From a virus (taxonomy: Duplodnaviria > Heunggongvirae > Uroviricota > Caudoviricetes), in IMG/VR virus record IMGVR_UViG_2579779007_000009, positions 1 to 32,407 of that record: a stretch of DNA of 32,407 nucleotides; one strand, given 5' to 3'. Both the position numbers and the translations under genes were made by a program. Within the stretch, counting starts at the first letter, position 1, and each line of letters begins with the position of its first letter. Shown here piece by piece: positions 3,355-30,450 of this stretch. Below the pieces are notes generated by a model. That model did no database searches, was not told the DNA's origin, and saw only the letters and a program-made list of their open reading frames with translations.

Positions 3355-3626
3355 GTATTCGTATTGAAATTGGCGAACGTTATGTCGTTACCAGTGACAG
3401 CTTTCAGTTTATTCTCCACGAGAAAAAGAGAGCGGAAAGCGGTAAAAACGCCGGTCAGGAATGGCTGGCGGTGGTTGGTTATTACCCGAAATTAAGCCAG
3501 CTCGTTTCCGGCCTGATGCATCACGATATTCTGACCGGAAGCGCAAAATCTTTTGCTGATTTAAACGCGCAGGTTGAGCAACTCAGCAAGCGTTGTTCAG
3601 AGGCTTTTGGCTCACATGGACGTTAA
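3351..3626 (+). CDS. Small early hypothetical protein (position of P2 orf83), 91 aa
   Basis: ATG 3351 overlaps the upstream stop (ATGA); GGAGAA upstream. Confidence 0.6.
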   Translation: MSIRIEIGERYVVTSDSFQFILHEKKRAESGKNAGQEWLAVVGYYPKLSQLVSGLMHHDILTGSAKSFADLNAQVEQLSKRCSEAFGSHGR

Positions 3627-5904
3627 AGCCTCCGGGCGTTTTGTCCCTCCGTCAGCATTTGCCGCAGGCACCGGTAAGACGTTTACCGGTGCTTATGCAT
3701 GGAACGCGCCACGCGAGGCCGTCGGGCGCGAAAGACCCCTTACACGTGACGAGATGCGTCAGGTGCAAGGTGTTTTATCCACGATTAACCGCCTGCCTTA
3801 CTTTTTGCGTTCGCTGTTTACTTCACGCTATGACTACATCCGGCGCAATAAAAGCCCGGTGCACGGGTTTTATTTCCTCACATCCACTTTTCAGCGTCGT
3901 TTATGGCCGCGCATTGAGCGCGTGAATCAGCGCCATGAAATGAACACCGACGCGTCGTTGCTGTTTCTGGCAGAGCGTGACCACTATGCGCGCCTGCCTG
4001 GAATGAATGACAAGGAGCTGAAAAAGTTTGCCGCCCGTATCTCATCGCAGCTTTTCATGATGTATGAGGAACTCTGCGATGCATGGGTTGATGCGCATGG
4101 TGAAAAAGAATCGCTGTTTACGGATGAGGCGCAGGCTCACCTGTATGGTCATGTTGCTGGCGCTGCACGTGCTTTCAATATTTCCCCGCTCTACTGGAAA
4201 AAATACAGTAAAGGACAGATGACCACGAGGCAGGCATATTCTGCCATTGCCCGTCTGTTTAACGATGAGTGGTGGATTAGTCAGCTTAAAGGCCAGCGTA
4301 TGCGCTGGCATGAGGCGTTACTGATTGCTGTCGGGGAGGTCAATAAAGACCGTTCTCCTTATGCCAGTAAACATGCCATTCGTGATGTGCGTGCGCGCCG
4401 CCAGGCAAATCTGGAATTTCTTAAATCGTGTGACCTTGAAAACAGGGAAACCGGCGAGCGCATCGACCTTATCAGTAAGGTGATGGGCAGTATTTCTAAT
4501 CCAGAAATTCGCCGGATGGAGCTGATGAACACCATTGCCGGTATTGAGCGTTACGCCGCCGCAGAGGGTGATTTGGGGATGTTTATCACGCTGACCGCGC
4601 CGTCAAAGTATCACCCGACACGTCAGGTCGGAAAAGGCGAAAGTAAAACCGTTCAGCTTAATCACGGCTGGAACGATGAGGCATTTAATCCAAAGGATGC
4701 GCAGCGTTATCTCTGCCGTATCTGGAGCCTGATGCGCACGGCATTCAAGGATAATGATTTACAGGTCTACGGTTTGCGTGTCGTCGAGCCACACCACGAC
4801 GGAACGCCGCACTGGCATATGATGCTTTTTTGTCATCCACGCCAGCGTAACCAGATTATCGAAATCATGCGTCGCTATGCGCTCAAAGAGGATGGCGACG
4901 AAAGAGGAGCCGCGCGAAACCGTTTTCAGGCAAAACACCTTAACCGGGGCGGTGCTGCGGGGTATATCGCGAAATACATCTCAAAAAATATCGACGGCTA
5001 TGCACTGGATGGGCAGCTCGATAACGATACCGGCAGACCGCTGAAAGATACTGCCGCGGCTGTTACCGCATGGGCGTCAACGTGGCGCATTCCGCAATTT
5101 AAAACGGTTGGCCTGCCGACAATGGGGGCTTACCGTGAACTACGCAAATTGCCTCGCGGCGTCAGCATTGCTGATGAGTTTGACGAGCGCGTCGAGGCTG
5201 CACGCGCCGCCGCAGACAGTGGTGATTTTGCGCTGTATATCAGCGCGCAGGGTGGGGCAAATGTCCCGCGCGATTGCCAGACTGTCAGGGTTGCCCGTAG
5301 CCCGTCGGATGACGTTAACGAGTACGAGGAAGAAGTCGAGAGAGTGGTCGGCATTTACGCGCCGCATCTCGGCGCGCGTCATATTCATATCACCAGAACG
5401 ACGGACTGGCGCATTGTTCCGAAAGTGCCGGTCGTTGAGCCTTTGACTTTAAAAAGCGGCATCGCCGCGCCTCGGAGTCCTGTCAATAACTGTGGAAAGC
5501 CTGCCAGCAGTGATACTTCGTTACTGGCTCCCACGCCTTCTGAACACGCCGCAGCAGTGCTTAATCTGGTAGATGACGGTGTTATCGAATGGAATGACCC
5601 GGAGGTCGTGAGGGCGCTAAGGGGCGCATTAAAACACGACCTGAGAACGCCAAATCGTCAGCAAAGAAACGGAAGCCCGTTAAAACCGCATGAGATAGCG
5701 CCATCGGCCAGACTGACTAGGTCGGAACGAATGCAAATTACCCGTATCCGCGTTGACCTCGCTCAGAACGGTATCAGGCCGCAGCGATGGGAGCTTGAGG
5801 CGCTGGCGCGTGGCGCGACGGTAAAGTTTGACGGACGAAAGTTTATATATCCAATAAGTGGTGAGTGGAAGCAGTTTTTTAGTGGCTTTGATCTTTTTAA
5901 GTAA
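3616..5904 (+). CDS. A: Replication initiation protein A (rolling-circle nicking endonuclease), 762 aa
   Basis: Long ORF trimmed to Met at 3616 (MDVKASGRFVPPSAFAAGTGK...); contains VVEPHHDGTPHWHMMLF and YIAKYISKNIDGY, recalled from P2 gpA. Confidence 0.92.
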   Translation: MDVKASGRFVPPSAFAAGTGKTFTGAYAWNAPREAVGRERPLTRDEMRQVQGVLSTINRLPYFLRSLFTSRYDYIRRNKSPVHGFYFLTSTFQRRLWPRIERVNQRHEMNTDASLLFLAERDHYARLPGMNDKELKKFAARISSQLFMMYEELCDAWVDAHGEKESLFTDEAQAHLYGHVAGAARAFNISPLYWKKYSKGQMTTRQAYSAIARLFNDEWWISQLKGQRMRWHEALLIAVGEVNKDRSPYASKHAIRDVRARRQANLEFLKSCDLENRETGERIDLISKVMGSISNPEIRRMELMNTIAGIERYAAAEGDLGMFITLTAPSKYHPTRQVGKGESKTVQLNHGWNDEAFNPKDAQRYLCRIWSLMRTAFKDNDLQVYGLRVVEPHHDGTPHWHMMLFCHPRQRNQIIEIMRRYALKEDGDERGAARNRFQAKHLNRGGAAGYIAKYISKNIDGYALDGQLDNDTGRPLKDTAAAVTAWASTWRIPQFKTVGLPTMGAYRELRKLPRGVSIADEFDERVEAARAAADSGDFALYISAQGGANVPRDCQTVRVARSPSDDVNEYEEEVERVVGIYAPHLGARHIHITRTTDWRIVPKVPVVEPLTLKSGIAAPRSPVNNCGKPASSDTSLLAPTPSEHAAAVLNLVDDGVIEWNDPEVVRALRGALKHDLRTPNRQQRNGSPLKPHEIAPSARLTRSERMQITRIRVDLAQNGIRPQRWELEALARGATVKFDGRKFIYPISGEWKQFFSGFDLFK

Positions 5905-6131: not shown

Positions 6132-8339
6132 CTAAGCGGTAACATTTACCTCTTCTTCACCCATCATTGTTAAGTAATGTTTCTCATCACCAGTCATTCT
6201 GAATATTTTGTGCAAGAGTTCTAAGTATTTCTCAGGTTCAATATCGCCCATATCTGTTATGTTTATTGCGTCGGAGTGAGAGCCTCTGTTTATATATCTG
6301 TAAAAGGCACGGAAATGGCTGTTATTTTCATCATTTGTTAATTCAGTAAGCTTTGCCTCTAATGCGTCAGTTCTATGAACAAATGCAAAGTAATACTCAA
6401 GTATATTTCTCATAATATTGGGGATTATTATTTTGTTGATTTTTTTCTCTTTTGCATCTTTTAATACTTGCCAAAGGGATTGGTATTCATTTTGCACACT
6501 TTTTTTATCTATAGCACTAATGGTGCTAAATTCATTTTTGTTTATTCTGCCAAGAAAGTAGTCACGTTTAAAATTTATTCCTTTTTTAGAGGCGAGTTTT
6601 ATTAACTCATGGAAGAAATAAAGATTATGGGTGAGGATTATTATTTTTGATGAAATGCCTTTTTCAATTATGTCATGATGGATCATGGATGCTATGTCGA
6701 AAACATAGTTTTGAGATAAACTTGATATAGGATCATCTATAACTATGAGTTTATCACGCATATCAGTATCATTTTCATTTGTTTTACCCTTGCAACATTC
6801 TAAAAAATATAGAAACGTTATTAATGTTTTTTCACCTTCGCTTAATGAGCGATATACATCTTGTTTTCTATTGTTTCCATCGCGGGATATTATATACTTA
6901 TCTTTGAGTTCGGCGTGTTTATCAATGCTAAAACCAGAGATGCCAAGAAATTTAAGTCGTGAGTTTATTGCATCTATTGTTGCATCTACACTTGATGTTT
7001 TATTTCTTAGTTCATTGATTTCATTTGTGTTGATCTCTTCTTTTCTTTTTATTTCCTGCATGAAGGATGCAGCGTTTTCATATTTTTCTTGAAAGTTTCT
7101 TTCGCAGTCTGATAGTATTTCAAATTCCGCGCCACATAAGTCTCTGATTGCTGCCCACATCTTTTCGCGAATATCTATTTCGCTATTATTAAATCTTTTT
7201 ACTTTGTCATTGAACTCGTTAATTTTATTGTTGTATTGTTCTATATCTTCTAATAGTTTTTCCTCTATCGACTTTTCAAACTCCAGCACAATGCTTATAG
7301 ATGGATTCTCTATTTTATTATCCAATAGTTTAATGTTTTTTTCTGCAATAGTTTCTAATGCCTTAACATATGAAAGACTTTTATCTTTTTCGTCTTGGTT
7401 TATCACCTCACATGATAAAATGTTACTCTTTATTTCTTCATGATGATTTTTAATGGCATTATCATAAGATAGTTTTATTTGTTGTATTTGATCTACTTTT
7501 CTTGAGTATGTTTCATCAAAGATAGATTCAATGGCTTTAATAAAATTATCATCTATTGTGTCCCTTTGGCAAAATGGACAAATTTCTCCATTTAAATATA
7601 GCTCTTTGCCTTGTTTAATCCAATCAATATTTTGTAGCTCTTTTATTGCTTCAGATAAATAGCTGTTGCTAGAGTCAATAATTGGTGTGGATAATGTTTT
7701 TTGAGTTTCTTCAGATAAAACATATCCTTTATAAGGAGTTATCAGAGGTATTTCTTTTCCTTTAAACTCGAGAAGTTTGCTATAAGATTGTATTAATGAT
7801 TTTATATCAATATCAGTTTGTGGAGTATACTTTTTTAGATGGTAATAGAAAGTGGCTTTGCTTCCTATTTGACCTTTCATTAATTGTTTTAATTCTGAAC
7901 TTCTTATGTCTTTGGTCTTATTCCATATGGAATTTATGCATTCTTGCTCTTTTTTGTTTTTCGCTTCATGGAGTTTTTCGATAAATTCTTTTTTTTCTTT
8001 ATGCTGATGTGCTAGTGATTTGTTTAGCTCTTCTTTTTCAGATAGTATTTTTTCAATTTCTGCATTTTTTTGACTGAGGGTAAATATACCTTTTTGCTCT
8101 TTTGCATTATAAAAATTATCTTCTATATATTTTGAGTTGTAGACTAGGGTTCGATAATTATCGATGGGTTCGCATACACATTCCTTATAGGCGGTGTCTT
8201 TAGGATTGTAAAAATAATTTGATATGGTAGATTTTCCACAACCATTTTGTCCATACAATATGTTTATTTTTTTGGATAAATCTAACTCAGTAAAATATTC
8301 TTTATGATAGCTTGTTACGTTTTTGAGTTTTAATTTCAT
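6132..8339 (-). CDS. Cargo ABC/AAA_13-type ATPase with CxxC motif, RloC/PrrC-like candidate abortive-infection protein, 735 aa
   Basis: Walker A GQNGCGKST near the N-terminus; long charged/heptad-like insert containing CPFC; LSEGEK signature-like motif; Walker B LIVIDDP; LTHN; C-terminal RNILE plus downstream His; strongly AT-rich; AGAGGG ribosome-binding site. Confidence 0.7.
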   Translation of the reverse strand: MKLKLKNVTSYHKEYFTELDLSKKINILYGQNGCGKSTISNYFYNPKDTAYKECVCEPIDNYRTLVYNSKYIEDNFYNAKEQKGIFTLSQKNAEIEKILSEKEELNKSLAHQHKEKKEFIEKLHEAKNKKEQECINSIWNKTKDIRSSELKQLMKGQIGSKATFYYHLKKYTPQTDIDIKSLIQSYSKLLEFKGKEIPLITPYKGYVLSEETQKTLSTPIIDSSNSYLSEAIKELQNIDWIKQGKELYLNGEICPFCQRDTIDDNFIKAIESIFDETYSRKVDQIQQIKLSYDNAIKNHHEEIKSNILSCEVINQDEKDKSLSYVKALETIAEKNIKLLDNKIENPSISIVLEFEKSIEEKLLEDIEQYNNKINEFNDKVKRFNNSEIDIREKMWAAIRDLCGAEFEILSDCERNFQEKYENAASFMQEIKRKEEINTNEINELRNKTSSVDATIDAINSRLKFLGISGFSIDKHAELKDKYIISRDGNNRKQDVYRSLSEGEKTLITFLYFLECCKGKTNENDTDMRDKLIVIDDPISSLSQNYVFDIASMIHHDIIEKGISSKIIILTHNLYFFHELIKLASKKGINFKRDYFLGRINKNEFSTISAIDKKSVQNEYQSLWQVLKDAKEKKINKIIIPNIMRNILEYYFAFVHRTDALEAKLTELTNDENNSHFRAFYRYINRGSHSDAINITDMGDIEPEKYLELLHKIFRMTGDEKHYLTMMGEEEVNVTA

Positions 8340-18060: not shown

Positions 18061-18702
18061 ATGAACACTCTCGCAAATATTCAGGAAATCGCGCGCGCAC
18101 TGCGCAACATGATCCGCACCGGCATTATCGTCGAAACCGACCTTAACGCCGGTCGCTGCCGTGTGCAGACCGGCGGCATGTGCACCGACTGGCTTCAGTG
18201 GCTGACCCATCGCGCCGGACGTTCGCGCACATGGTGGGCACCTTCCGTGGGGGAACAGGTGCTGATTCTGGCCGTGGGCGGTGAACTCGACACGGCATTC
18301 GTTCTGCCGGGGATTTATTCCGGCGATAACCCCGCGCCGTCTGCGTCGGCGGATGCCCTGCATATCCGTTTCCCTGACGGGGCGGTGATTGAATATGAAC
18401 CCGAAACCAGTGCACTTACGGTAAGCGGAATTAAAACGGCCAGTGTGACGGCTTCTGATTCTGTTACTGCCACGGTGCCGGTGGTTATGGTGAAAGCATC
18501 AACCCGCGTCACCCTGGACACACCGGAGGTGGTTTGCACCAACAAACTGATTACCGGCACGCTGGAAGTGCAGAAGGGCGGGGCGATGCGCGGCAACATC
18601 GCGCATACCGACGGGAAATTCACTTCTAACGGCGTTCAGGTGGATGACCACGGTCACGGTGGTGTTAAGTCAGGTGACAACTGGACACAGGGGACAAAAT
18701 GA
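18061..18702 (+). CDS. V: Baseplate central spike protein V, 213 aa
   Basis: Synteny; size; His-rich C-terminus HGHGG typical of spike tips. Confidence 0.88.
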   Translation: MNTLANIQEIARALRNMIRTGIIVETDLNAGRCRVQTGGMCTDWLQWLTHRAGRSRTWWAPSVGEQVLILAVGGELDTAFVLPGIYSGDNPAPSASADALHIRFPDGAVIEYEPETSALTVSGIKTASVTASDSVTATVPVVMVKASTRVTLDTPEVVCTNKLITGTLEVQKGGAMRGNIAHTDGKFTSNGVQVDDHGHGGVKSGDNWTQGTK

Positions 18703-19046
18703 CAGCGCGTTATCTCGGAATGAATCGCAGTGATGGCCTGACTGTCACTGACCTTGAGCATATCAGCCAGAGTATCGGCGATATCCTGCGCACACCGGTC
18801 GGCTCACGGGTGATGCGTCGTGATTACGGCTCGTTGCTGGCGTCAATGATTGACCAGCCGCAGACCCCGGCGCTTGAGTTGCAGATTAAGGTCGCCTGTT
18901 ACATGGCAGTACTGAAATGGGAACCCCGCGTCACCCTGTCATCCGTCACCACTGAGCGCAGTTTTGACGGGCGAATGACGGTCACGTTAACCGGCCAGCA
19001 CAACGACACCGGCCAGCCACTTTCGTTAACCATCCCTGTGAGTTGA
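18699..19046 (+). CDS. W: Baseplate wedge protein W (gp25-like), 115 aa
   Basis: Synteny and size match P2 gpW; start overlaps the V stop. Confidence 0.88.
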   Translation: MTARYLGMNRSDGLTVTDLEHISQSIGDILRTPVGSRVMRRDYGSLLASMIDQPQTPALELQIKVACYMAVLKWEPRVTLSSVTTERSFDGRMTVTLTGQHNDTGQPLSLTIPVS

Positions 19047-19959: not shown

Positions 19960-20482
19960 TTCGCGACTGCTGCCGACCGGCTCATCACCGCTTGAAGTCG
20001 CCGCCGCAAAAGCCTGTGCGGAAATTGAAAAAACGCCGGTCAGTATTCGTGAGCAGTGGAACCCGGATACCTGTCCGGCAAATCTGCTTCCGTGGCTGGC
20101 GTGGGCGTTTTCGGTCGACAGGTGGGATGAAAAGTGGCCGGAAGCGACCAAACGCGCCGTTATTCGCGATGCCTATTTCATCCACTGTCATAAAGGCACT
20201 ATAGGTGCAATCCGGCGTGTGGTGGAGCCGCTGGGCTATCTCATCAACGTGACGGAGTGGTGGGAAACCAGTGACCCGCCGGGCACCTTCCGGCTTGATA
20301 TTGGTGTACTGGAAAGCGGCATCACAGAGGCAATGTATCAGGAAATGGAACGGCTGATTGCTGATGCCAAACCTGCAAGCCGCCACCTTATTGGCCTGAA
20401 CATTACCCGGGACATTCCCGGCTACCTGTTCGCCGGTAGTGTGGCTTATGACGGCGATGTAATTACGGTTTACCCCGGATAA
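19952..20482 (+). CDS. I: Baseplate protein I, 176 aa
   Basis: Synteny and size match P2 gpI; start overlaps the J stop. Confidence 0.88.
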   Translation: MSDSRLLPTGSSPLEVAAAKACAEIEKTPVSIREQWNPDTCPANLLPWLAWAFSVDRWDEKWPEATKRAVIRDAYFIHCHKGTIGAIRRVVEPLGYLINVTEWWETSDPPGTFRLDIGVLESGITEAMYQEMERLIADAKPASRHLIGLNITRDIPGYLFAGSVAYDGDVITVYPG

Positions 20483-20492
20483 GTGAGGAATA

Positions 20493-22742
20493 ATGAGCAC
20501 AAAATTCAGAACCGTTATCACCACTGCCGGTGCAGCAAAGCTGGCAGCGGCAACCGCACCGGGAGGGCGGAAGGTCAACATTACCACGATGGCCGTCGGG
20601 GATGGCGGGGGTAAATTGCCTGTCCCGGATGCCGGACAGACCGGGCTTATCCACGAAGTCTGGCGACATGCGCTGAACAAAATCAGTCAGGACAAACGAA
20701 ACAGTAATTATATTATCGCAGAGCTGGTTATTCCGCCGGAGGTGGGCGGTTTCTGGATGCGTGAGCTTGGCCTGTACGATGATGCGGGAACGTTAATTGC
20801 CGTGGCGAACATGGCCGAAAGTTATAAGCCAGCTCTTGCCGAAGGCTCAGGGCGTTCGCAGACCTGCCGCATGGTCATCATCGTCAGCAGTGTGGCCTCA
20901 GTGGAGCTGACCATTGACACTACAACGGTGATGGCAACGCAGGATTACGTTGATGACAAAATTGCAGAACATGAACAGTCACGACGTCACCCGGACGCCT
21001 CGCTGACCGCCAAAGGTTTTACTCAGTTAAGCAGTGCGACCAACAGCACGTCTGAAACACTGGCCGCAACGCCGAAAGCGGTAAAGGCCGCGTATGACCT
21101 TGCTAACGGGAAATATACTGCGCAGGATGCCACCACAGCGCGAAAAGGTCTTGTCCAGCTCAGTAGTGCCACCAACAGCACGTCTGAAACGCTCGCCGCA
21201 ACACCAAAAGCGGTAAAGGCCGCGTATGACCTTGCTAACGGGAAATACACTGCACAGGATGCCACCACAGCGCGAAAAGGTCTTGTCCAGCTCAGTAGCG
21301 TCACCAACAGCGATTCTGAAACGCTTGCGGCAACGCCAAAGGCGGTTAAGACAGCGTATGACCTTGCTAACGGGAAATACACTGCACAGGATGCCACCAC
21401 CGCGCGGAAAGGCCTTGTCCAGCTCAGTAGCGCCACCAACAGTGATTCTGAAACGCAGGCCGCAACACCAAAAGCGGTGAAGTCTGCCTATGACAATGCT
21501 GAAAAACGTCTTCAGAAAGATCAGAACGGTGCGGATATTCCTGATAAAGGACGCTTCCTGAGTAACATTAATGTTTACAGCAAAGGTGAAGTGGATAAGA
21601 AAAAGGGAATGCGAAAGTATTCGTTTGCAGCCCCTGCAAATGTCGTTGCCGGGAAGTGGTATCCCGTTATCTTTCGCCGTGCTGCCAGCCTTTCAGGAGA
21701 AATGGCATCCCGCGTCGTTATTTCCACTGGTTGTTATAACAGCGATTATGTAATGAATAACTGCGAGTTTAATGGCATGGTTATGCCCGGAGGCTGGACT
21801 GATCGTGGTTCATATGCGGCAGGTTATTTCTGGACGTATCAGACTAATGAGCGTTCAATCCATTCCATTGTTACAAGCCTGAAAGATGATGATGTATGTA
21901 GTGTTTTTTATGTTGAAGCCAGAGCTTTCCCTGTGCAAATTCTTGCAGAGGAAGGGCTAACGGTTATTGTTCCGACAGAGGATTATGTCGTCGGTCAAAC
22001 GACATATAAGTGGGGGGCAACTAATCCTGCTACAGAAAGCACGAACGCACAGGCTATTCTGGATTTTAAAAATGGGCGCGGTTATTACTGCTCACATCCA
22101 TTTATTTCCAGCCTTTCGGGAAATGCTGCAACAGCAACGAAGTTAGCGAACGCAAGAAATATTAATGGTGTCAGATTTGATGGCTCTGCTGATATAAATA
22201 TTAATACACTGGTATCCAGAAACCGTGTTACTGCATTAGGTGGGAGCGTAAAGGGGACACCAGGTATTCAGATGTATGAGGCATACAACAATGGCTACCC
22301 AACAGCCTATGGTAATGTGCTTCATCTCACTGGCGTAACCGCAGTAGGAGAGGGTGAGTTACTTATTGGCTGGAGTGGAACCAGCGGTGCTCATGCTCCG
22401 GCATATATTCGCTCCCGACGAGATACCACAGATGCTAACTGGTCTGGATGGGCGCAACTATATACAACTGCTCATAAACCCTCAGCGGGAGATGTTGGTG
22501 CATACACCAAAGCTGAATCAGATTCACGTTATGTGAGAGACATGCGGCTGGGCGGTGCATCTACATATAAACCAGCAAATAATGGTACTACATGGACGCA
22601 TCAGGCTCCGTCAGGTTGCGTATATACCGGCATTATTGTTCAGGATACCGGCTCAAACTCTGCCGATAACATTGGTGGCGTATATTACAGACCGGTGCAG
22701 AAATACATTAACGGGACATGGTATAACGTGGCGCAGGTATAA
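20493..22742 (+). CDS. H: Tail fibre protein H, 749 aa, with internal tandem repeats and a compositionally distinct distal part
   Basis: N-terminus MSTKFRTVITTAGAAKLAAATA... as recalled for P2 gpH; 44-aa tandem repeats; followed by assembly chaperone G. Confidence 0.9.
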   Translation: MSTKFRTVITTAGAAKLAAATAPGGRKVNITTMAVGDGGGKLPVPDAGQTGLIHEVWRHALNKISQDKRNSNYIIAELVIPPEVGGFWMRELGLYDDAGTLIAVANMAESYKPALAEGSGRSQTCRMVIIVSSVASVELTIDTTTVMATQDYVDDKIAEHEQSRRHPDASLTAKGFTQLSSATNSTSETLAATPKAVKAAYDLANGKYTAQDATTARKGLVQLSSATNSTSETLAATPKAVKAAYDLANGKYTAQDATTARKGLVQLSSVTNSDSETLAATPKAVKTAYDLANGKYTAQDATTARKGLVQLSSATNSDSETQAATPKAVKSAYDNAEKRLQKDQNGADIPDKGRFLSNINVYSKGEVDKKKGMRKYSFAAPANVVAGKWYPVIFRRAASLSGEMASRVVISTGCYNSDYVMNNCEFNGMVMPGGWTDRGSYAAGYFWTYQTNERSIHSIVTSLKDDDVCSVFYVEARAFPVQILAEEGLTVIVPTEDYVVGQTTYKWGATNPATESTNAQAILDFKNGRGYYCSHPFISSLSGNAATATKLANARNINGVRFDGSADININTLVSRNRVTALGGSVKGTPGIQMYEAYNNGYPTAYGNVLHLTGVTAVGEGELLIGWSGTSGAHAPAYIRSRRDTTDANWSGWAQLYTTAHKPSAGDVGAYTKAESDSRYVRDMRLGGASTYKPANNGTTWTHQAPSGCVYTGIIVQDTGSNSADNIGGVYYRPVQKYINGTWYNVAQV
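21012..21500 (+). repeat. In-frame tandem repeat inside H: about 3.7 copies of a 132-bp (44-aa) unit
   Basis: Unit K-G-L/F-x-Q-L-S-S-A/V-T-N-S-x-S-E-T-L-A-A-T-P-K-A-V-K-A-A-Y-D-L-A-N-G-K-Y-T-A-Q-D-A-T-T-A-R read directly, with copies starting at 21012, 21144, 21276 and 21408. Confidence 0.9.
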
Positions 22743-22745
22743 TTT

Positions 22746-23273
22746 ATGCAGCATTTAAAAAATATTACGGCGGGTAATCCAAAAACGGTTGAACAATATC
22801 AATTGACAAAGGACTTTGATGTTGTCTGGTTTTTTTCAGAAGATGGTAAGAACTGGTACGAAGAACAAAAGTATTTTGCTGATGACACGATAAAAATAGC
22901 GTACGACAAAGATAATATCATCCACTATGTGGAAAAGGATGTGACAGCTATCAGACCGGATGGATTAAGTGTTGTTGAAGTGGCGGATATTACTGCTAAC
23001 CGACGGGCGGACATTTCAGGGAACTGGATGTTTAAGGACGGCAAAGTGATTAAACGCATTTATACGGCAGAGGAATTACAGCAGCAGGCAGAAATTCAGA
23101 AAGCCAGACTTCTTGCAGATGCTGAATCCGTGATTTTGCCGCTGGAGCGCGCGGTCAGACTGAACATGGCAACAGATGAGGAGCGTAGCCGACTGGAATC
23201 ATGGGAACGCTACAGCGTTCTGGTCAGTCGTGTGGATCCTGCAAATCCTGAATGGCCGGAAATGCCGCAATAA
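22746..23273 (+). CDS. G: Tail fibre assembly chaperone G, 175 aa
   Basis: Immediately downstream of H; size matches P2 gpG. Confidence 0.85.
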
Positions 23274-23312
23274 GTTGTATTAGCTTACATATCTATGGCA
23301 CAGAGTAAAGCC

Positions 23313-23350
23313 TAATCTGACAGTCCGCTCTGTGCCAGGAGCGGAAGTCG
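23313..23350. repeat. Left arm of an imperfect inverted repeat flanking the G-FI cargo island
   Basis: AATCTGACAGTC...GAGCGGAAGT here pairs with the reverse complement of 25584..25624; coordinates hand-counted. Confidence 0.6.
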
Positions 23351-23455
23351 ATTGATGACTCACTACTAATTCGTCTTGCTTACTCCTAATGTTGATAAAT
23401 GTGAATAAGATTAATACTATAAAGAATTATAATTTAATAGACGGCGGTTTAGGTA

Positions 23456-24382
23456 ATGGGCGAGTTCTCAAAATATGTCGGCGAGGTGGGCGAAGAGATA
23501 GTCAATGACTTTCTGAAACTCTTTGGATGGAAAAACCTATGTAGTAACAAGCAATTAGATTGCTGCGTGGGAGAACATGCTAAAAAGACACATGGAATAG
23601 ATGCTTTGTATGTCTACAACTCTATGCTTCAAAAACAATCATTAGTAAGCGTTGTTGTTTCTGCAAAGTATTCATCAGTACCTTACGATAAAGTCAAAAC
23701 TACTTTTCGCTCACATTTCAAAGACTTGGCACACACCATTGAATGTTATTCAAAATCCCAGTTTAAAAGAACCATAACAAGACAATTTCCAGGTAGTTCA
23801 AGAAAAGAAGATATTGGGGTTTTGTTTTATTTAAATAATGATGAAAGCGATTCAAATGATAATATTAAAGGTGAAATCATCAATCATAGAATCGATTCTA
23901 CCCTCAAGTTCAACGCCATACATCTCGTTGATAACGCAAGAGCAAAATTTTTATACAACTCGATAAGCTTTATCAAGAAAAAGCATGGTGAAATATCTTT
24001 TTTCTGTCTTAACACTACCTTAAATGTTTCATCTTCAACAAGACATTCTAAAATAATGCCTGTTGAATACATTACCTCTCCAATAATTCCCATTTCTGTG
24101 CCTGATGATAATGGGCGAAAATTTATATTACTTTGCGATTTTAATTACAGTAAAGAATCACTAGGGTTGGTGTATAAATTAGCTAGAAAGCTTTGTTCCG
24201 ATTTCGCAAATCATTATGAGATTTATTTCAATAAATATAATAAACTCACAGACTCCCCTTCAGTTGATGAAGTCAAAATGGCGCAAAATTTTGAAGATGG
24301 CTCTGAGGATGTCGTTGGAGATATTACATTAATCGTTGATTCTTATAATAGCACCTTCAGGAGCATTTCTGATGAAAAATGA
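23456..24382 (+). CDS. Cargo protein 1 of the G-FI island, 308 aa; possible PD-(D/E)xK-like nuclease N-terminal domain
   Basis: AT-rich ORF; N-terminal order of acidic helix (GEVGEE), HGIDALYVY strand and VVVSAK strand; no homolog recognised by recall. Confidence 0.7.
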   Translation: MGEFSKYVGEVGEEIVNDFLKLFGWKNLCSNKQLDCCVGEHAKKTHGIDALYVYNSMLQKQSLVSVVVSAKYSSVPYDKVKTTFRSHFKDLAHTIECYSKSQFKRTITRQFPGSSRKEDIGVLFYLNNDESDSNDNIKGEIINHRIDSTLKFNAIHLVDNARAKFLYNSISFIKKKHGEISFFCLNTTLNVSSSTRHSKIMPVEYITSPIIPISVPDDNGRKFILLCDFNYSKESLGLVYKLARKLCSDFANHYEIYFNKYNKLTDSPSVDEVKMAQNFEDGSEDVVGDITLIVDSYNSTFRSISDEK

Positions 24383-25529
24383 TATTGATTTCATCCCCTC
24401 CGGAGATGAACTGAAAAATCTTGTGAGCCAGCAGAACTGTAGCTCTACAATGATCAATAATCTACTTAAAGAAAGAGGGCTTTTTTGCGGAGTGTCTGAA
24501 AAATCAGGCACAGTTCCAAACTTGATCACCTCTTTACTAAGCCCTGATGAATCTTATGATTTACTAAGCAGTATTAAAACAAAGGAAAAATTAGATAAAG
24601 TAAATTTCAGGAATTTTGATCTTAAGCAAGATGTTGATTTGCTTGGTGAAGTTAGTGGGTTTGTAGATGTTAGTAAAATCACAAAAAATGGTTACATTAA
24701 TTATGAGATATCAGATTTTAGCGATTTTACATCTCTAGATGGTAGAAGTAATAATTCCGTAATAATGGAGTTCGAAATTTGCAAGACAGATATTCTAGAT
24801 GATTGGTATATAACTGAGAAGTTCTTTAAAGGATCTGTGGAAATCAAGAAAGACGTTAATGGCATCACTGGTAACTCCCAGCTTTTAATGAATGTAAAAC
24901 TAAATCACACATCTCCGGAAACTAAAGAAATAGCTGAAAATGTCATAACCTTGATAGAGGAGCATTTGGAAAGAAATAATATAATTGAACATTCGCCTCA
25001 TCGAGGTAGAGTTCTGATGGATGATTTTGAAAATGAAAACAGAGTAAAATTCCTTAATGAATTAGCATCCCTTCATATTGGATACTTATTCTACCATCAA
25101 AAAATAGATGATGTTCATTTTAATCCGGATCATTCTACTGGTTACGAAAAACAATCAGATGCTGTGACTAATTTTCTCGAAAAAGATATTGACCAGTATA
25201 GAGTCAAAGGAAATCTAGAGAATATAATATCTATCAAATGGAAACACATACACCCGTATGTACGTGTTACTAAGGTTGTCGCAAGTTACACAATTAGCTA
25301 TGAATCCTATTCAGGTGAATGTAAGGTTGCATACGAGTTTAGTGAATATGGAAGAAAAACCCCTGTTAATCCTGAATTGTGCATTACCTTTATAAATATA
25401 AAGGTTAAAGGTGCGTCGCCCTCTAAAATACATGATATTCAATCAAACATTATGCGTGAGATTGAATTACGTAAAGTAGAATTGCTTACTAAATATAGAA
25501 AAGTTGCTGATGCTGAATCAAACAGCTAA
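24372..25529 (+). CDS. Cargo protein 2 of the G-FI island, 385 aa; unknown function
   Basis: ATG 24372 preceded by AGGAG and overlapping the end of cargo protein 1 by 11 nt (operon coupling); AT-rich; no motif recognised. Confidence 0.7.
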   Translation: MKNDIDFIPSGDELKNLVSQQNCSSTMINNLLKERGLFCGVSEKSGTVPNLITSLLSPDESYDLLSSIKTKEKLDKVNFRNFDLKQDVDLLGEVSGFVDVSKITKNGYINYEISDFSDFTSLDGRSNNSVIMEFEICKTDILDDWYITEKFFKGSVEIKKDVNGITGNSQLLMNVKLNHTSPETKEIAENVITLIEEHLERNNIIEHSPHRGRVLMDDFENENRVKFLNELASLHIGYLFYHQKIDDVHFNPDHSTGYEKQSDAVTNFLEKDIDQYRVKGNLENIISIKWKHIHPYVRVTKVVASYTISYESYSGECKVAYEFSEYGRKTPVNPELCITFINIKVKGASPSKIHDIQSNIMREIELRKVELLTKYRKVADAESNS

Positions 25530-25583
25530 TTCTATGGTTATGCTCCCGATTGATTAATACCCACTATTAACACGGGAGCAAAG

Positions 25584-25624
25584 CGAACTTCCGCTCCTCG
25601 CTCAAAGCAGACTGTCAGATTTGA
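25584..25624. repeat. Right arm of the imperfect inverted repeat flanking the G-FI cargo island
   Basis: Reverse complement TCAAATCTGACAGTC...GAGGAGCGGAAGTTCG matches the left arm at 23313..23350. Confidence 0.6.
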
Positions 25625-25682
25625 TAGCATTTGGGCTATGTAAATTGTCAGGCGGAAAATGAGTGAGTACAAATCAGGACAG

Positions 25683-25708
25683 GCGGGCGAATTGCCCGCA
25701 TTTTCTTT
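25683..25708 (+). terminator. Intrinsic terminator downstream of the cargo operon, upstream of FI
   Basis: Stem GCGGGC / GCCCGC with 5-nt loop followed by ATTTTCTTT. Confidence 0.6.
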
Positions 25709-25804
25709 ATCTGTTGTTTCATCCCCTGACCAGCCAGGTCAAATAGCGTCTCATGCTCTGCACAACAGAAAATAGTTGCACCCATTAACCACGGAGTTAA
25801 ACGG

Positions 25805-26995
25805 ATGAGTGACTATCATCACGGCGTGCAGGTGCTGGAGATTAACGACGGCACCCGCGTCATTTCCACCGTATCCACGGCCATTGTCGGCATGGTCTGC
25901 ACGGCCAGCGATGCGGATGCGGAAACCTTCCCCCTCAATAAACCTGTGCTGATTACCAATGTGCAGAGCGCAATTGCAAAGGCCGGTAAAAAAGGCACGC
26001 TGGCGGCATCGTTGCAGGCCATCGCCGACCAGTCAAAACCGGTCACCGTTGTCGTGCGCGTGGAAGACGGCACCGGCGATGACGAAGAAACGAAACTCGC
26101 GCAGACCGTTTCCAATATCATCGGCACCACCGACGAAAACGGTCAGTACACCGGACTGAAAGCCCTGCTGGCGGCGGAGTCGGTAACCGGTGTTAAACCG
26201 CGTATTCTCGGTGTGCCGGGACTGGATACCAAAGAGGTGGCTGTTGCACTGGCATCCGTCTGTCAGAAGCTGCGCGCTTTCGGATATATCAGCGCATGGG
26301 GCTGTAAGACTATTTCCGAGGTGAAAGCCTACCGCCAGAATTTCAGCCAGCGTGAGCTGATGGTCATCTGGCCGGATTTCCTCGCATGGGATACGGTCAG
26401 CAGCACCACCGCCACCGCGTATGCCACCGCCCGTGCGCTGGGTCTGCGCGCTAAAATCGACCAGGAGCAGGGCTGGCATAAAACGCTGTCCAATGTCGGG
26501 GTAAACGGTGTTACCGGCATCAGCGCCTCTGTATTCTGGGATTTGCAGGAGTCCGGCACCGATGCTGACCTGTTGAACGAGTCAGGTGTCACAACGCTGA
26601 TTCGCCGTGACGGTTTCCGCTTCTGGGGTAACCGTACCTGCTCTGATGACCCACTGTTCCTCTTTGAAAACTACACCCGCACCGCGCAGGTGCTGGCCGA
26701 CACGATGGCTGAGGCGCACATGTGGGCGGTGGATAAGCCCATCACCGCAACGCTGATTCGCGACATCGTTGACGGCATCAATGCCAAATTCCGTGAGCTG
26801 AAAACAAACGGCTATATCGTGGATGCGACCTGCTGGTTCAGCGAAGAATCCAACGATGCGGAAACCCTCAAGGCCGGAAAACTGTATATCGACTATGACT
26901 ATACCCCGGTGCCTCCTCTCGAAAACCTGACCCTGCGCCAGCGTATTACTGATAAATATCTGGCAAATCTGGTCACCTCGGTTAACAGCAATTAA
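25805..26995 (+). CDS. FI: Contractile tail sheath protein FI, 396 aa
   Basis: Translation and size match recalled P2 gpFI; strong GGAG upstream. Confidence 0.92.
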   Translation: MSDYHHGVQVLEINDGTRVISTVSTAIVGMVCTASDADAETFPLNKPVLITNVQSAIAKAGKKGTLAASLQAIADQSKPVTVVVRVEDGTGDDEETKLAQTVSNIIGTTDENGQYTGLKALLAAESVTGVKPRILGVPGLDTKEVAVALASVCQKLRAFGYISAWGCKTISEVKAYRQNFSQRELMVIWPDFLAWDTVSSTTATAYATARALGLRAKIDQEQGWHKTLSNVGVNGVTGISASVFWDLQESGTDADLLNESGVTTLIRRDGFRFWGNRTCSDDPLFLFENYTRTAQVLADTMAEAHMWAVDKPITATLIRDIVDGINAKFRELKTNGYIVDATCWFSEESNDAETLKAGKLYIDYDYTPVPPLENLTLRQRITDKYLANLVTSVNSN

Positions 26996-27007
26996 GGAGC
27001 CTGACCG

Positions 27008-27526
27008 ATGGCAATGCCGCGCAAACTCAAGTTAATGAACGTCTTTCTGAACGGCTACAGCTATCAGGGCGTTGCAAAGTCCGTCACGCTGCCAAAACTG
27101 ACCCGTAAGCTCGAAAACTATCGCGGTGCGGGGATGAACGGCAGCGCACCGGTAGACCTCGGCCTTGATGACGATGCGCTGTCAATGGAGTGGTCGCTCG
27201 GGGGCTTCCCGGATTCGGTTATCTGGGAACTTTACGCCGCAACCGGTGTGGATGCCGTACCGATTCGTTTTGCAGGCTCTTACCAGCGCGACGATACCGG
27301 CGAAACGGTGGCCGTCGAGGTGGTCATGCGTGGACGTCAGAAAGAAATCGACACCGGCGAGGGGAAACAGGGAGAAGATACCGAGTCGAAAATCTCCGTG
27401 GTCTGCACTTATTTCCGGCTGACGATGGACGGTAAGGAGCTGGTCGAAATTGACACCATCAACATGATTGAGAAGGTGAACGGCGTCGACCGGCTGGAGC
27501 AACACCGCCGCAATATCGGCCTGTGA
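27008..27526 (+). CDS. FII: Tail tube protein FII, 172 aa
   Basis: Synteny and size match P2 gpFII. Confidence 0.9.
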   Translation: MAMPRKLKLMNVFLNGYSYQGVAKSVTLPKLTRKLENYRGAGMNGSAPVDLGLDDDALSMEWSLGGFPDSVIWELYAATGVDAVPIRFAGSYQRDDTGETVAVEVVMRGRQKEIDTGEGKQGEDTESKISVVCTYFRLTMDGKELVEIDTINMIEKVNGVDRLEQHRRNIGL

Positions 27527-27582
27527 TTTTCATCCGGTCAGCCTGGCTGACCGGTTAACCCCGATTCAGAAGTGAGAAAACC

Positions 27583-28010: not shown

Positions 28011-30450
28011 CAATGTAAAATTACAGGTATTGCTCAGGGCTGTTGACCAGGCATCCCGCCCGTTTAAATCCATCCGCACAGCGAGCAAGTCGCTGTCGGG
28101 GGATATCCGGGAAACACAAAAATCACTGCGCGAGCTGAACGGTCACGCATCCCGTATTGAGGGATTTCGCAAGACCAGTGCGCAGCTCGCCGTGACTGGT
28201 CATGCACTTGAAAAGGCACGGCAGGAAGCCGAAGCCCTTGCCACACAGTTTAAAAACACCGAACGTCCGACCCGTGCTCAGGCGAAAGTGCTGGAATCCG
28301 CAAAGCGAGCGGCGGAGGACTTACAGGCGAAATATAACCGCCTGACGGATTCCGTTAAACGCCAGCAGCGGGAACTGGCCGCTGTGGGAATTAATACCCG
28401 CAATCTTGCACATGATGAGCAGGGACTGAAAAACCGTATCAGTGAAACCACCGCACAGCTTAACCGTCAGCGCGACGCGCTGGCGCGTGTCAGTGTGCAA
28501 CAGGCAAAACTTAACGCAGTCAAACAGCGTTATCAGGCCGGAAAGGAACTGGCCGGAAATATGGCCTCAGTAGGCGCTGCCGGTGTGGGGATTGCGGCGG
28601 CGGGAACGATGGCCGGAGTTAAGTTGCTGATGCCCGGTTATGAGTTTGCGCAGAAAAACTCAGAATTGCAGGCCGTGCTCGGTGTGGCAAAAGACTCCGC
28701 CGAAATGGCTGCACTACGCAAGCAGGCGCGCCAGCTCGGCGACAATACCGCCGCCTCGGCGGATGATGCAGCCGGTGCGCAGATTATTATCGCGAAAGCC
28801 GGTGGGGATGTTGATGCCATTCAGGCGGCAACGCCGGTCACGCTGAATATGGCGCTGGCGAACCGTCGCACGATGGAAGAAAATGCCGCCCTGCTGATGG
28901 GGATGAAATCCGCCTTTCAGCTTTCAAACGATAAGGTCGCTCATATCGGGGATGTTCTCTCCATGACGATGAACAAAACCGCCGCCGATTTTGACGGCAT
29001 GAGCGATGCGCTGACCTATGCCGCACCTGTGGCAAAAAATGCCGGTGTCAGCATTGAAGAAACCGCCGCAATGGTCGGGGTACTGCATGATGCAAAAATT
29101 ACCGGTTCAATGGCGGGGACGGGAAGCCGTGCCGTGTTAAGCCGCCTGCAGGCACCGACGGGAAAAGCATGGGATGCACTCAAAGAGCTTGGCGTTAAAA
29201 CCTCGGACAAAAAGGGAAATATGCGTCCGTTGTTCACCATTCTGAAAGAAATGCAGGCCAGTTTTGAGAAAAACCGGCTCGGTACTGCCCAGCAGGCCGA
29301 ATACATGAAAACCATTTTCGGGGAGGAGGCCAGCTCAGCCGCCGCTGTGCTGATGACTGCCGCGTCAACCGGAAAGCTGGACAAACTGACCGCTGCGTTT
29401 AAAGCCTCAGACGGAAAGACCGCAGAACTGGTAAATATCATGCAGGACAACCTTGGCGGTGACTTTAAGGAGTTTCAGTCCGCTTATGAGGCGGTGGGGA
29501 CTGACCTGTTTGACCAGCAGGAAGGCGCACTGCGTAAGCTCACTCAGACGGCCACAAAGTATGTGTTAAAACTCGACGGCTGGATCCAGAAAAACAAATC
29601 ACTGGCGTCAACCATCGGCCTCATTGTCGGTGGCGCGCTGGCGCTTACTGGCATCATCGGTGCCATTGGTCTTGTAGCCTGGCCGGTTATCACCGGCATC
29701 AATGCCATTATCGCGGCAGCAGGCGCAATGGGGGCAATCTTCACGACGGTTGGTAGTGCTGTTATGACGGCCATCGGGGCGATTAGCTGGCCGGTTGTGG
29801 CCGTGGTGGCCGCCATTGTCGCCGGGGCGTTGCTTATCCGTAAATACTGGGAGCCTGTCAGCGCATTCTTTGGCGGTGTGGTGGAAGGGCTGAAAGCGGC
29901 ATTTGCGCCGGTGGGGGAACTGTTCACGCCACTTAAACCGGTGTTTGACTGGCTGGGTGAAAAGTTACAGGCCGCGTGGCAGTGGTTTAAAAACCTGATT
30001 GCCCCGGTCAAAGCCACCCAGGACACCCTGAACCGTTGCCGTGACACGGGCGTCATGTTCGGGCAGGCACTGGCTGACGCGCTGATGCTGCCGCTTAATG
30101 CGTTCAACAAACTGCGCAGTGGTATTGACTGGGTACTGGAAAAACTCGGTGTCATCAACAAAGAGTCAGACACACTTGACCAGACCGCCGCAAGGACTAA
30201 TGCCGCCACGTATGGCACCGGTGGTTATATTCCGGCGACCAGCTCTTATGCAGGCTATCAGGCTTATCAGCCGGTCACGGCACCGGCTGGCCGCTCTTAT
30301 GTGGACCAGAGTAAAAACGAATATCACATCAGCCTGACCGGTGGTACTGCGCCGGGGACACAGCTTGACCGCCAGTTACAGGATGCGCTCGAAAAATACG
30401 AGCGGGATAAACGTGCGCGCGCCCGTGCCAGCATGATGCATGACGGTTAA
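28003..30450 (+). CDS. T: Tail tape measure protein T, 815 aa
   Basis: Long ORF with a coiled-coil N-terminal region and Gly/Ala-rich hydrophobic segments; position after E/E'. Confidence 0.92.
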   Translation: MSNNVKLQVLLRAVDQASRPFKSIRTASKSLSGDIRETQKSLRELNGHASRIEGFRKTSAQLAVTGHALEKARQEAEALATQFKNTERPTRAQAKVLESAKRAAEDLQAKYNRLTDSVKRQQRELAAVGINTRNLAHDEQGLKNRISETTAQLNRQRDALARVSVQQAKLNAVKQRYQAGKELAGNMASVGAAGVGIAAAGTMAGVKLLMPGYEFAQKNSELQAVLGVAKDSAEMAALRKQARQLGDNTAASADDAAGAQIIIAKAGGDVDAIQAATPVTLNMALANRRTMEENAALLMGMKSAFQLSNDKVAHIGDVLSMTMNKTAADFDGMSDALTYAAPVAKNAGVSIEETAAMVGVLHDAKITGSMAGTGSRAVLSRLQAPTGKAWDALKELGVKTSDKKGNMRPLFTILKEMQASFEKNRLGTAQQAEYMKTIFGEEASSAAAVLMTAASTGKLDKLTAAFKASDGKTAELVNIMQDNLGGDFKEFQSAYEAVGTDLFDQQEGALRKLTQTATKYVLKLDGWIQKNKSLASTIGLIVGGALALTGIIGAIGLVAWPVITGINAIIAAAGAMGAIFTTVGSAVMTAIGAISWPVVAVVAAIVAGALLIRKYWEPVSAFFGGVVEGLKAAFAPVGELFTPLKPVFDWLGEKLQAAWQWFKNLIAPVKATQDTLNRCRDTGVMFGQALADALMLPLNAFNKLRSGIDWVLEKLGVINKESDTLDQTAARTNAATYGTGGYIPATSSYAGYQAYQPVTAPAGRSYVDQSKNEYHISLTGGTAPGTQLDRQLQDALEKYERDKRARARASMMHDG

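Follow-up and report, generated by a model that had tools for sequence, protein, structure and literature searches.

The window, by which we mean the whole 32,407-nucleotide stretch of DNA analyzed here, is a P2-like prophage whose open reading frames follow the late operon order V-W-J-I-H-G, with a GAPS4 cassette and then FI downstream of G. The region around the tail-fiber gene H contains the following features:

20493-22742, plus strand: tail-fiber gene H (749 aa), with a PF12571 N-terminal collar domain and four Phage_fiber_2 repeats.
20493-20942, plus strand: H aa 1-150, the N-terminal tail-collar or baseplate-attachment domain (PF12571, E = 1.5e-58).
21012-21500, plus strand: H shaft repeats, 132-nt (44-aa) Phage_fiber_2 units in ~3.5 to 4 copies (TRF, PF03406).
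21492-22127, plus strand: H module A, the AT-richer middle domain, aa 334-545 (GC 0.447, GC3 0.38; tblastn).
22128-22493, plus strand: H module B, a P1 Sv-type unit, aa 546-667 (78% aa identity to P1 S).
22494-22742, plus strand: H module C, the fiber tip and partner of chaperone G, aa 668-749 (matches to Mu S/S' C-termini).
22746-23273, plus strand: G, tail-fiber assembly chaperone (Tfa, Mu U type; PF02413, E = 3e-34).
23314-23348, no strand: left arm (35 nt) of the hotspot inverted repeat, outside the H/G cassette and given for context.
23456-25529, plus strand: GAPS4 anti-phage cargo, GC 0.33 (gapS4a, 23456-24382; gapS4b, 24372-25529).
25587-25621, no strand: right arm of the hotspot inverted repeat, given for context.

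The PF12571 match covers aa 1 to 151 of H and is followed by Phage_fiber_2 repeats, which, together with the position of the gene in the V-W-J-I-H-G order and its near-identical 5' part, identifies the product as a P2-type gpH. The J-I-H(5') segment shows 97 to 98% nucleotide identity in 74 of 92 Peduovirus records, and aa 1 to 150 of H are 99 to 100% identical across 80 IMG/VR loci; among the Peduovirus records, this constant N-terminal portion contrasts with a variable distal H. The shaft repeats form a tandem array (TRF, 21039-21494; period 132, 3.5 copies, 90% matches), which was also recovered as a direct repeat in the repeat search and in which PF03406 matches four stretches (E = 1.6e-80). 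Within this array, at 21183-21213, identity to P2 H falls from ~95% to ~35%, and the repeats have 64 to 69% aa identity to those of P1 S. The adjacent gene G starts 4 nt past the H stop codon and encodes a Caudo_TAP protein of ~175 aa that matches PF02413.

Base composition changes sharply along H. The core late genes (n = 19) have a GC content of 0.566 and a GC3 of 0.66, and H aa 1-150 are backbone-like in both (0.562 and 0.62). The repeats (aa 151-333) have values of 0.545 and 0.53, followed by 0.447 and 0.38 in module A, 0.473 and 0.34 in module B, 0.472 and 0.42 in the tip, and 0.446 and 0.44 in G. In modules A and B and in G, both GC and GC3 lie below those of all equal-length in-frame windows within the core late genes; for the 82-aa tip, GC3 lies under all core windows and GC is equalled or undercut in just 0.1% of them. 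The first-pass annotation had described distal H and G as AT-richer than the 5' part of H and the baseplate genes, and the measured values agree (GC of 0.45 to 0.47 versus 0.57 in the late-gene backbone; GC3 of 0.34 to 0.44 versus 0.66). The maximum-likelihood change point falls at 21489 for all bases and at 21443 for third codon positions, coinciding with the 3' end of the 132-nt array, and its log-likelihood ratio within H is 10.5, whereas 200 shuffles gave at most 8.3. The step had thus been placed correctly after the repeats, but its proposed start at 21540 lies ~50 to 100 nt downstream of the actual change point. Further change points, at 23351 and 25571, mark the borders of the still AT-richer cargo. 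Codon usage, which the annotation had named as a check, deviates as well: distal H plus G lie at a distance of 1.53 from the core late genes, compared to 0.73 ± 0.11 (maximum 0.96) for size-matched core samples, and the distance to P1 S plus U is smaller (0.90).

The same GC step is present in P2, 9W, L-413C, OU784750, and OU784549, which were compared individually, and in 75 of 76 related IMG/VR contigs that carry at least 20 different H lengths. Among these IMG/VR relatives, GC is 0.463 ± 0.014 (range, 0.438 to 0.502) in the 75 with a scorable distal H, 0.448 ± 0.007 (range, 0.416 to 0.460) in 70 G genes, and 0.574 ± 0.003 (range, 0.563 to 0.585) in J/I. The low GC of distal H/G, being found at the same locus in relatives, does not make a lineage-specific recent compositional island. 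The AT-rich step is a family trait of P2-like phages and no mark of recent acquisition. Because P2-like relatives with many H alleles share it, composition is uninformative on acquisition by this prophage, which had been read from the AT-richness. A GC step at the tail-fiber gene is the norm in this family and should not be scored as recent horizontal transfer.

The relatives of the distal part differ from module to module. In tblastn searches, module A is 98.6% identical to P22H4/9W, 61% to the lambdoid phage ev099, and 60% to a Punavirus P1 variant, with remoter matches in T5-like long tail fibers (37 to 41%) and rV5-like phages (~31%). At the amino acid level, module B is 78% identical to residues 488-607 of P1 S (Sv), and it also matches SSU5 (75%), D6 (75%), Goslar (72%), and P7 (70%), but its identity to other Peduovirus H proteins, 9W included, is merely 37 to 38%. 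It is bounded by the motifs GNAATATKL (~22110-22135) and KPSAGDVGAYTK (~22490), and nucleotide comparison places the divergence between them: identity to 9W is 30 to 50% across ~22110-22450 and back to 98% at 22484. Module B is at least 95% identical in 51 E. coli genome records, and the next identity band among E. coli genomes, at ~76% nt, is found chiefly on 90- to 100-kb plasmids, which we take to be P1-like. A recent donor of module B outside P2-like prophages was considered and rejected, as the best match below the ≥95% class is chromosomal (81%) and plasmids mostly reach ~76% nt. Partial matches of 88 to 91% on two plasmids of 110 to 124 kb lie outside the same-allele class.

The tip is similar to the C-terminal ends of Mu S/S' (8JU3_A, 1.9e-23; 5YVQ_A, 1.3e-13) and to the short tail fiber of phiTE (9CUY_c, 3.1e-19). 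Over its full 175 aa, G shares 75% identity with Mu U (PDB 5YVQ_B; E = 1.9e-84); it is 92 to 97% identical to G of 9W, P22H4, OU784750, and fiAA91-ss, and 74 to 78% identical to L-413C G, D108 U, P7 U', and the Peduovirus P2 G of NC_070904. Identity to the reference P2 G is ~75% nt, with 87 to 97% at the 3' end and 55 to 78% in the middle. Tip and G together show 92 to 98% nucleotide identity to many P2-like Peduovirus records; they represent the commonest Peduovirus type and not a foreign import. Across loci, G combines a variable, predicted fiber-binding N-terminal domain with a conserved C-terminal domain, and tip identity tracks aa 1-100 of G (r = 0.95) more than its last 70 aa (r = 0.34); tip and G N-terminus are <300 nt apart, so that physical linkage alone could explain this correlation, and the loci are phylogenetically non-independent. 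In Mu Tfa, it is the variable N-terminal domain that binds the tip of the fiber, and trimerization is the task of the conserved C-terminal domain (PMC9608196, which summarizes 5YVQ). By analogy, G may bind the H tip and be needed for trimerization of the fiber.

The modules are also found in different combinations. In IMG/VR loci, the window type of module A is followed by three arrangements, B+C+G, B'+C+G, and B'+C'+G', and the window type of C+G is joined to unrelated middle domains in H alleles that range from 621 to 772 aa. Distal H, with G, consists of at least three independently shuffled modules with differing relatives. These relatives support the earlier suggestion of a mosaic distal H and G with modules common to P1, Mu, and lambdoid fiber genes, but in place of the single exchanged module that had been proposed we find at least three sub-modules that have distinct relatives and reassort independently. 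Every module has matches of 98 to 100% in other E. coli P2-like prophages, and identity to other phage groups does not exceed 78% aa or ~76% nt. Two prophages share long tracts with the window: that of KSC207 has 0 differences over 21330-22610 (the A+B tract) and that of ECE218 has 4 differences over 22518-27543, compared to 1 to 5% divergence elsewhere. Because all modules match other E. coli P2-like prophages at 98 to 100%, recent exchange lies within the P2-like family, and the links between phage families are old. The annotation had regarded uniform composition and best hits in a single phage lineage as signs against its reading; the best hits do all belong to the same lineage (98 to 100%), but the composition is not uniform. 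As for a horizontal origin of the receptor module, mosaicism and gene flow are upheld, but an acquisition special to this prophage is not.

The strongest composition outlier nearby is the GAPS4 cassette, which occupies the Z/fun hotspot between G and FI. Its genes match NCBIfam NF047933 (291 bits; cutoff, 270) and NF047934 (324 bits; cutoff, 300), and homologs of both ORFs carry the names GapS4a/GapS4b; Pfam and PADLOC searches gave no recognition of the two ORFs, save a weak "Hp1" match for one. Unlike distal H/G, this cargo does qualify as a lineage-specific recent compositional island, with GAPS4 present in 3 of 5,426 E. coli genomes. The 35-nt arms of the flanking inverted repeat (23314-23348 and 25587-25621) are 89% complementary, and both are conserved in 66 of 87 P2-like loci. 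Homology to 9W and OU784750 stops at 23337-23348, and homology to other P2-like phages restarts at 25590. Inversion of the cargo between the arms was rejected, with 82 same-orientation and 0 opposite matches for 67 cargo segments. The arms were likewise rejected as intrinsic terminators of the canonical kind, because the stable hairpin that arm 1 forms (−19.7 kcal/mol) has no T-tract after it. The terminator scan found a minus-strand terminator-like site at 25611-25590 in the right arm and a plus-strand site at 25683-25699.

Two further candidates were rejected. If a Mu/P1-type invertible segment had left a relic, cix/gix-like sites or inverted copies of H/G would be expected; 20000-23400 has no cixL/cixR-like sites (≤5 mismatches) and no AAACC..GGTTT core, and no inverted copies of H/G sequence were found in 20400-25900. 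A variable repeat of the DGR type, which would pair with a template repeat, is not seen either, as 20400-25900 has no direct repeats other than the 132-nt shaft array; among the few ORFs scanned, none matched a reverse transcriptase in the family library, and the other ORFs are P2-like in position and size.

We consider it very probable that 21490-23273 makes up the variable part of a P2-type fiber that serves receptor recognition, a cassette built of modules from a shared pool that are reassorted by recombination. The constant first 150 aa of H would anchor the trimeric fiber to the baseplate. A shaft of 44-aa repeats would carry modules A and B and tip C, the distal modules, which are likely to bind the receptor. 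The N-terminal domain of G would grip the tip, and its conserved C-terminal helices would initiate trimerization from the C-terminus, a chaperone mechanism modeled on that of Mu. The fiber/chaperone units may be drawn from a pool that also serves P1, Mu, lambdoid, T5-like, and other phages. Homologous recombination would reassort them, with putative joints in the shaft repeats, GNAATATKL, and KPSAGDVGAYTK; that the conserved motifs act as joints is suggested by a few pairwise comparisons (9W, KSC207, ECE218, and P2). The recent exchange partners were other E. coli P2-like prophages, with one tract that carried A+B and a second, of ~5 kb, that extends from the tip through G and the GAPS4 cassette to FI.

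The abrupt drop in GC where the repeats end, the P1 S/U-like codon usage, and the identity of module B to P1 Sv (78%) and of G to Mu U (75%) could also be explained if distal H and G had recently been gained as one block from a foreign phage group of the P1, Mu, or lambda type, with a low GC that is not yet ameliorated. We regard such a gain as very improbable: every P2-like phage examined shows this step, down to an equal GC level, whichever allele it carries, the block falls into at least three modules with differing relatives, all of its pieces recur at 98 to 100% elsewhere among E. coli P2-like prophages, matches beyond the family reach just ~76% nt or ≤78% aa at best, and tip and G are of the commonest Peduovirus type.

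The common composition can be read as the mark of a shared AT-richer pool or as the outcome of codon-usage selection in fiber genes. AT-richness might stem not from gene flow but from selection on the fiber and chaperone genes, either for amino acid composition or for rare AT-ending codons that slow translation so that an intertwined trimer can fold. A constraint of this kind could yield the uniform GC of unrelated alleles (0.448 ± 0.007 in G and 0.463 ± 0.014 in distal H), and the P1 S/U genes share these values. Yet GC drops most at third codon positions (0.34 to 0.44 versus 0.66), and amino acid composition therefore does not explain it. The P1 fiber genes (0.45 to 0.49), moreover, are close to their own neighboring baseplate genes (0.463), and thus no special constraint is needed in P1. 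The mosaic relationships directly show gene flow, with which selection is compatible, and we deem selection in place of gene flow very unlikely.

Within the favored reading of a reassorted receptor-recognition cassette, we tentatively conjecture that ~120-aa units between GNAATATKL and KPSAGDVGAYTK swap as cassettes between P1- and P2-type fibers by homologous recombination, and that tip, chaperone, Z/fun defense cargo, and sheath gene move as one tract of ~5 kb. If this were the case, gain of a defense system would drag along host-range determinants, and vice versa. The near-identical 5-kb tip-G-GAPS4-FI tract hints that one recombination event can exchange both the host-range and the defense repertoire. 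For engineering of P2/P4 particles or tailocins, the module map (N-terminal anchor, repeats, A, P1-like B, and C with G) offers natural junctions, and tip and G should be transferred jointly.

An AT-rich, mosaic H/G cassette is a long-known feature of P2-like phages, and the mosaicism of the P2 tail-fiber genes, reportedly described in 1992 (Haggård-Ljungquist, Halling & Calendar, J Bacteriol 174:1462), belongs to textbook P2 biology. The window resembles P2 in the V-W-J-I-H-G position, in an H N-terminus and first repeats that are 93 to 100% identical at the nucleotide level, in an equal GC step (0.39 to 0.47 in P2 H beyond aa 400; 0.438 in P2 G), and in a G of likewise 175 aa. However, P2 H has 669 aa and fewer shaft repeats, and its distal part is unrelated (25 to 45% nt in forced alignment past 21213). 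Phages 9W and P22H4 are closer, with 98.4% nucleotide identity over 80% of 21540-23273 and the same A, C, and G, but in place of module B they carry a unit that is unrelated to it though similar in length (38% aa; H of 748 versus 749 aa), and other cargo lies downstream of G.

The likeness to Mu S/U lies in G (75% to Mu U) and in the last 75 to 110 aa of H, which align with the Mu S/S' tips, and the two fibers probably share an assembly mechanism. In contrast to Mu, the window is without an invertible G segment, a second S'/U' pair, a gix site, and an invertase, and the remainder of its H is unrelated to Mu S. The S (Sc/Sv)/U genes in the Cin-invertible C segment of P1 are similar in module B (78%), shaft repeats (64 to 69%), and GC (0.45 to 0.49), but the window is without cix sites or an inversion system and has another attachment domain. 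Engineered fibers that join P2(1-370) to P1 S'(446-987) are functional with U' and retarget particles (PMC9942202). These P2-P1(S') chimeras and their P2-phiV10 counterparts resemble the window allele in combining a P2 N-terminus with a foreign distal part and a cognate chaperone (PMC9942202), whereas the natural allele keeps a Peduovirus tip and G and has its P1-like unit internally only.

The window is a complete P2-like (Peduovirus) prophage whose genes, as read from the ORF map and domain scans, stand in prophage order. The first AT-rich cargo is followed by Q/P, the head and lysis genes, V-W-J-I, H, G, a second AT-rich cargo, FI-FII-E-T-U-D and the start of ogr.

Main features of the prophage
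1-996, minus strand: int (ORF map)
3574-5904: A (ORF map)
6132-8339, minus strand: AT-rich cargo ORF between A and Q/P
20493-22742: H, tail-fibre gene, 749 aa, with an N-terminal tail-collar domain (PF12571, E=1.5e-58) and four Phage_fiber_2 repeats
22746-23273: G, assembly chaperone gene, 175 aa (Caudo_TAP, E=3e-34)
23456-25529: second AT-rich cargo, between G and FI

By established knowledge and homology, the fibre is anchored on the baseplate through the N-terminus of H, its shaft consists of the repeats, and adsorption is determined by the distal modules; G aids trimerisation starting at the C-terminus.

The 19 core late genes have a GC of 0.566 and a GC3 of 0.66, and composition falls along H as follows.

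Composition of H segments and G
H aa 1-150: GC 0.562, GC3 0.62
H repeats, aa 151-333: GC 0.545, GC3 0.53
H aa 334-545 (module A): GC 0.447, GC3 0.38
H aa 546-667 (module B): GC 0.473, GC3 0.34
H aa 668-749 (tip C): GC 0.472, GC3 0.42
G: GC 0.446, GC3 0.44

Values for modules A and B and for G lie below those of all equal-length in-frame windows of core genes; the 82-aa tip is under all core windows in GC3, and its GC is equalled by only 0.1% of them. The maximum-likelihood change point (21489 for all bases, 21443 for third positions; log-likelihood ratio greater than in all of 200 shuffles) coincides with the 3′ end of a 132-nt tandem array at 21039-21494. Within-amino-acid codon usage of distal H and G is at a distance of 1.53 from the core genes (null 0.73 ± 0.11, maximum 0.96). 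Because the core-window comparison, the change point and codon usage agree, the AT-richness that the first-pass annotation had described for 3′ H and G is real, and the boundary lies within about 50-100 nt of the start it had proposed, 21540. Two more change points, 23351 and 25571, border the second cargo (GC 0.33), so that the region has three composition tiers rather than two; the two cargo loci are the strongest compositional outliers.

The same step occurs across the family. In P2, GC drops from 0.53-0.61 to 0.39-0.47 past aa 400 of H, and G has 0.438; the step is also found in the Peduovirus phages and records 9W, OU784750, L-413C and OU784549, and the distal H sequences of all five differ. 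Among 80 IMG/VR loci encoding the same H N-terminal domain, 76 carry a complete H, in at least 20 different lengths (322 to 816 aa). In these loci, GC is 0.574 ± 0.003 in J/I (minimum 0.563), 0.562 ± 0.003 in the H N-terminus, 0.463 ± 0.014 in distal H (maximum 0.502; 75 scorable loci) and 0.448 ± 0.007 in G. The compositional step is thus a constant trait of the family's fibre cassette, and can neither date nor prove an acquisition by this prophage such as the first-pass annotation had inferred. Codon usage of distal H and G is near that of P1 S and U (distance 0.90); P1 S/U have a GC of 0.45-0.49, and the P1 baseplate genes are similar (0.463).

In DNA searches, J-I-H(5′) was covered to 80% or more in 74 of 92 matched Peduovirus records, most of the 92 being 90-98% identical. 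The segment 21540-23273 reached 80% coverage in only three records (9W and P22H4, 98.4%, in two pieces), and about twenty others match only the H tip and G (22521-23273; 92-95%). We set module boundaries by three-way alignment and sliding identity. Similarity to P2 H ends within the repeat array, at 21183-21213. Identity to 9W is 98-100% to about 22100, 30-50% until about 22450 and again 98-100% from 22484 to the end of G; both junctions fall at motifs conserved among fibres, GNAATATKL and KPSAGDVGAYTK. In the shaft (21012-21500), the number of 44-aa repeats varies among P2-like phages, with four Pfam-scored repeats in the window and 9W and about two units fewer in the alignment of P2 H; a different number would alter fibre length.

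Relatives of the distal modules and G in protein searches
Module A: P22H4 98.6%; lambdoid ev099 61%; P1 variant 60%; more remotely, T5-like long tail fibres 37-41% and rV5-like about 31%
Module B: P1 Sv 78% (S aa 488-607); SSU5 75%; D6 75%; Goslar 72%; P7 70%; lambdoid mEp460 67%; Gifsy-1 62%; other Peduovirus H only 37-38%
Tip C: Mu S/S′ C-termini (8JU3, 5YVQ); phiTE short tail fibre (9CUY)
G: Mu U 75% over the whole length (5YVQ_B, E=1.9e-84); G of P22H4, OU784750 and fiAA91-ss 92-97%; L-413C G, D108 U and P7 U′ 74-78%; lambda-type Tfa, C-terminal third alone

The 76 IMG/VR alleles show how these modules combine. Module A of the window type occurs with B, C and G (749 aa, 8 loci), with a different B′ followed by C and G (748 aa, the 9W type), and, in a 740-aa form, with B′ followed by another tip, C′ (52%), and by G′ (77-78%). 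C and G of the window type also follow middle domains that are unrelated to A and B, the H alleles then being 621, 692, 709, 728, 736 and 772 aa long. How similar two tips are correlates with identity over G aa 1-100 (r = 0.95) and weakly with that over the 70 C-terminal residues of G (r = 0.34). In the Mu structure, the variable N-terminal domain of Tfa binds the fibre tip and the conserved C-terminal domain drives trimerisation (PMC9608196). The correlation fits this prediction and is supportive, not decisive, because close physical linkage gives the same pattern.

Of 5426 complete E. coli genomes, 62 have the complete allele at about 98%, and in the two checked, KSC207 and ECE218, it lies in P2-like prophages. 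E. coli records with module B at 95% or higher number 51; below them comes a band at about 76%, made up mostly of plasmids of 90-100 kb (presumably P1-like), with partial matches of 88-91% on two plasmids of 110-124 kb. Cross-family links are therefore old, or their donors are unsampled. Recent exchange is within the family. KSC207 has no differences from the window over 21330-22610 (A and B), about 4% in the 5′ part of H and about 2% in G. With ECE218, only four positions differ across 22518-27543, from the tip through G, the cargo and FI into the start of FII, and divergence is 1-5% outside this tract. Both tracts include 22518-22610, directly 3′ of the B/C motif. It seems that a single recent recombination event carried host-range and defence determinants together, in a tract of about 5 kb; the fibre allele and cargo are not fixed partners, because KSC207 has a different cargo. 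Divergence from ECE218 has local peaks in V/W (18361-18960), with 41 and 23 differences per 300 nt, and in T, where the 3′ half (29161-30360) has 15-19 per 300 nt; this suggests that baseplate and tape-measure genes contain more patches of recombination.

One recent foreign acquisition of distal H and G as a single exchanged module would account for their low GC. This explanation is contradicted by the family-wide step in the IMG/VR loci, by the independent reassortment of modules and by the 98-100% matches inside the family. Amino-acid composition as the cause is ruled out, since the drop is greatest at third codon positions; codon-level selection could still lie behind the AT-richness. Searches for the relic of an invertible segment and for a DGR were both negative.

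The cargo between G and FI occupies the P2 Z/fun hotspot, a recognised accessory and defence locus (PMC13586616), and holds two genes.

Genes of the second cargo
23456-24382, plus strand: gapS4a, above cutoff for NCBIfam antiphage_GapS4a (family named PD-(D/E)XK nuclease)
24372-25529, plus strand: gapS4b, above cutoff for NCBIfam antiphage_GapS4b

Their homologues bear the names GapS4a and GapS4b, and by these matches the cargo is identified as a GAPS4 anti-phage system, a DNase triggered by DNA breaks according to a preprint (10.1101/2025.09.07.674715). Among 5426 complete E. coli genomes, just 3 have it at 100% identity. A 35-nt inverted repeat (arms 23314-23348 and 25587-25621, 89% complementary) lies exactly at the cargo borders; both arms are kept in 66 of 87 P2-like loci, where they enclose differing cargo of 750-3250 nt. 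The left arm folds into a hairpin of -19.7 kcal/mol that lacks a T-tract, none of 67 segments showed inversion of the cargo, and a keyword search of three hotspot papers returned no mention of the repeat. At the cos-proximal old/tin hotspot, the 735-aa ORF at 6132-8339 (minus strand, GC 0.30) has an AAA_13 ATPase domain (E=6e-104); its best match is PADLOC candidate PDC-S06 (E=2.3e-254), and it resembles the C-terminal region of PrrC more weakly.

We propose that the lasting low GC reflects ongoing gene flow with an AT-richer pool of fibre modules shared between families, in which the conserved motifs would act as recombination joints. G may remain on the fibre tip, like Mu U. A shuffled fibre cassette has long been known from P2 (Haggård-Ljungquist 1992), and the allele itself is in public genomes; the anatomy, the module relatives and the recombination tracts are what this analysis shows. 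In published experiments, chimeras of P2(1-370) and P1 S′(446-987), supplied with U′, proved functional and retargeted the particles (PMC9942202).
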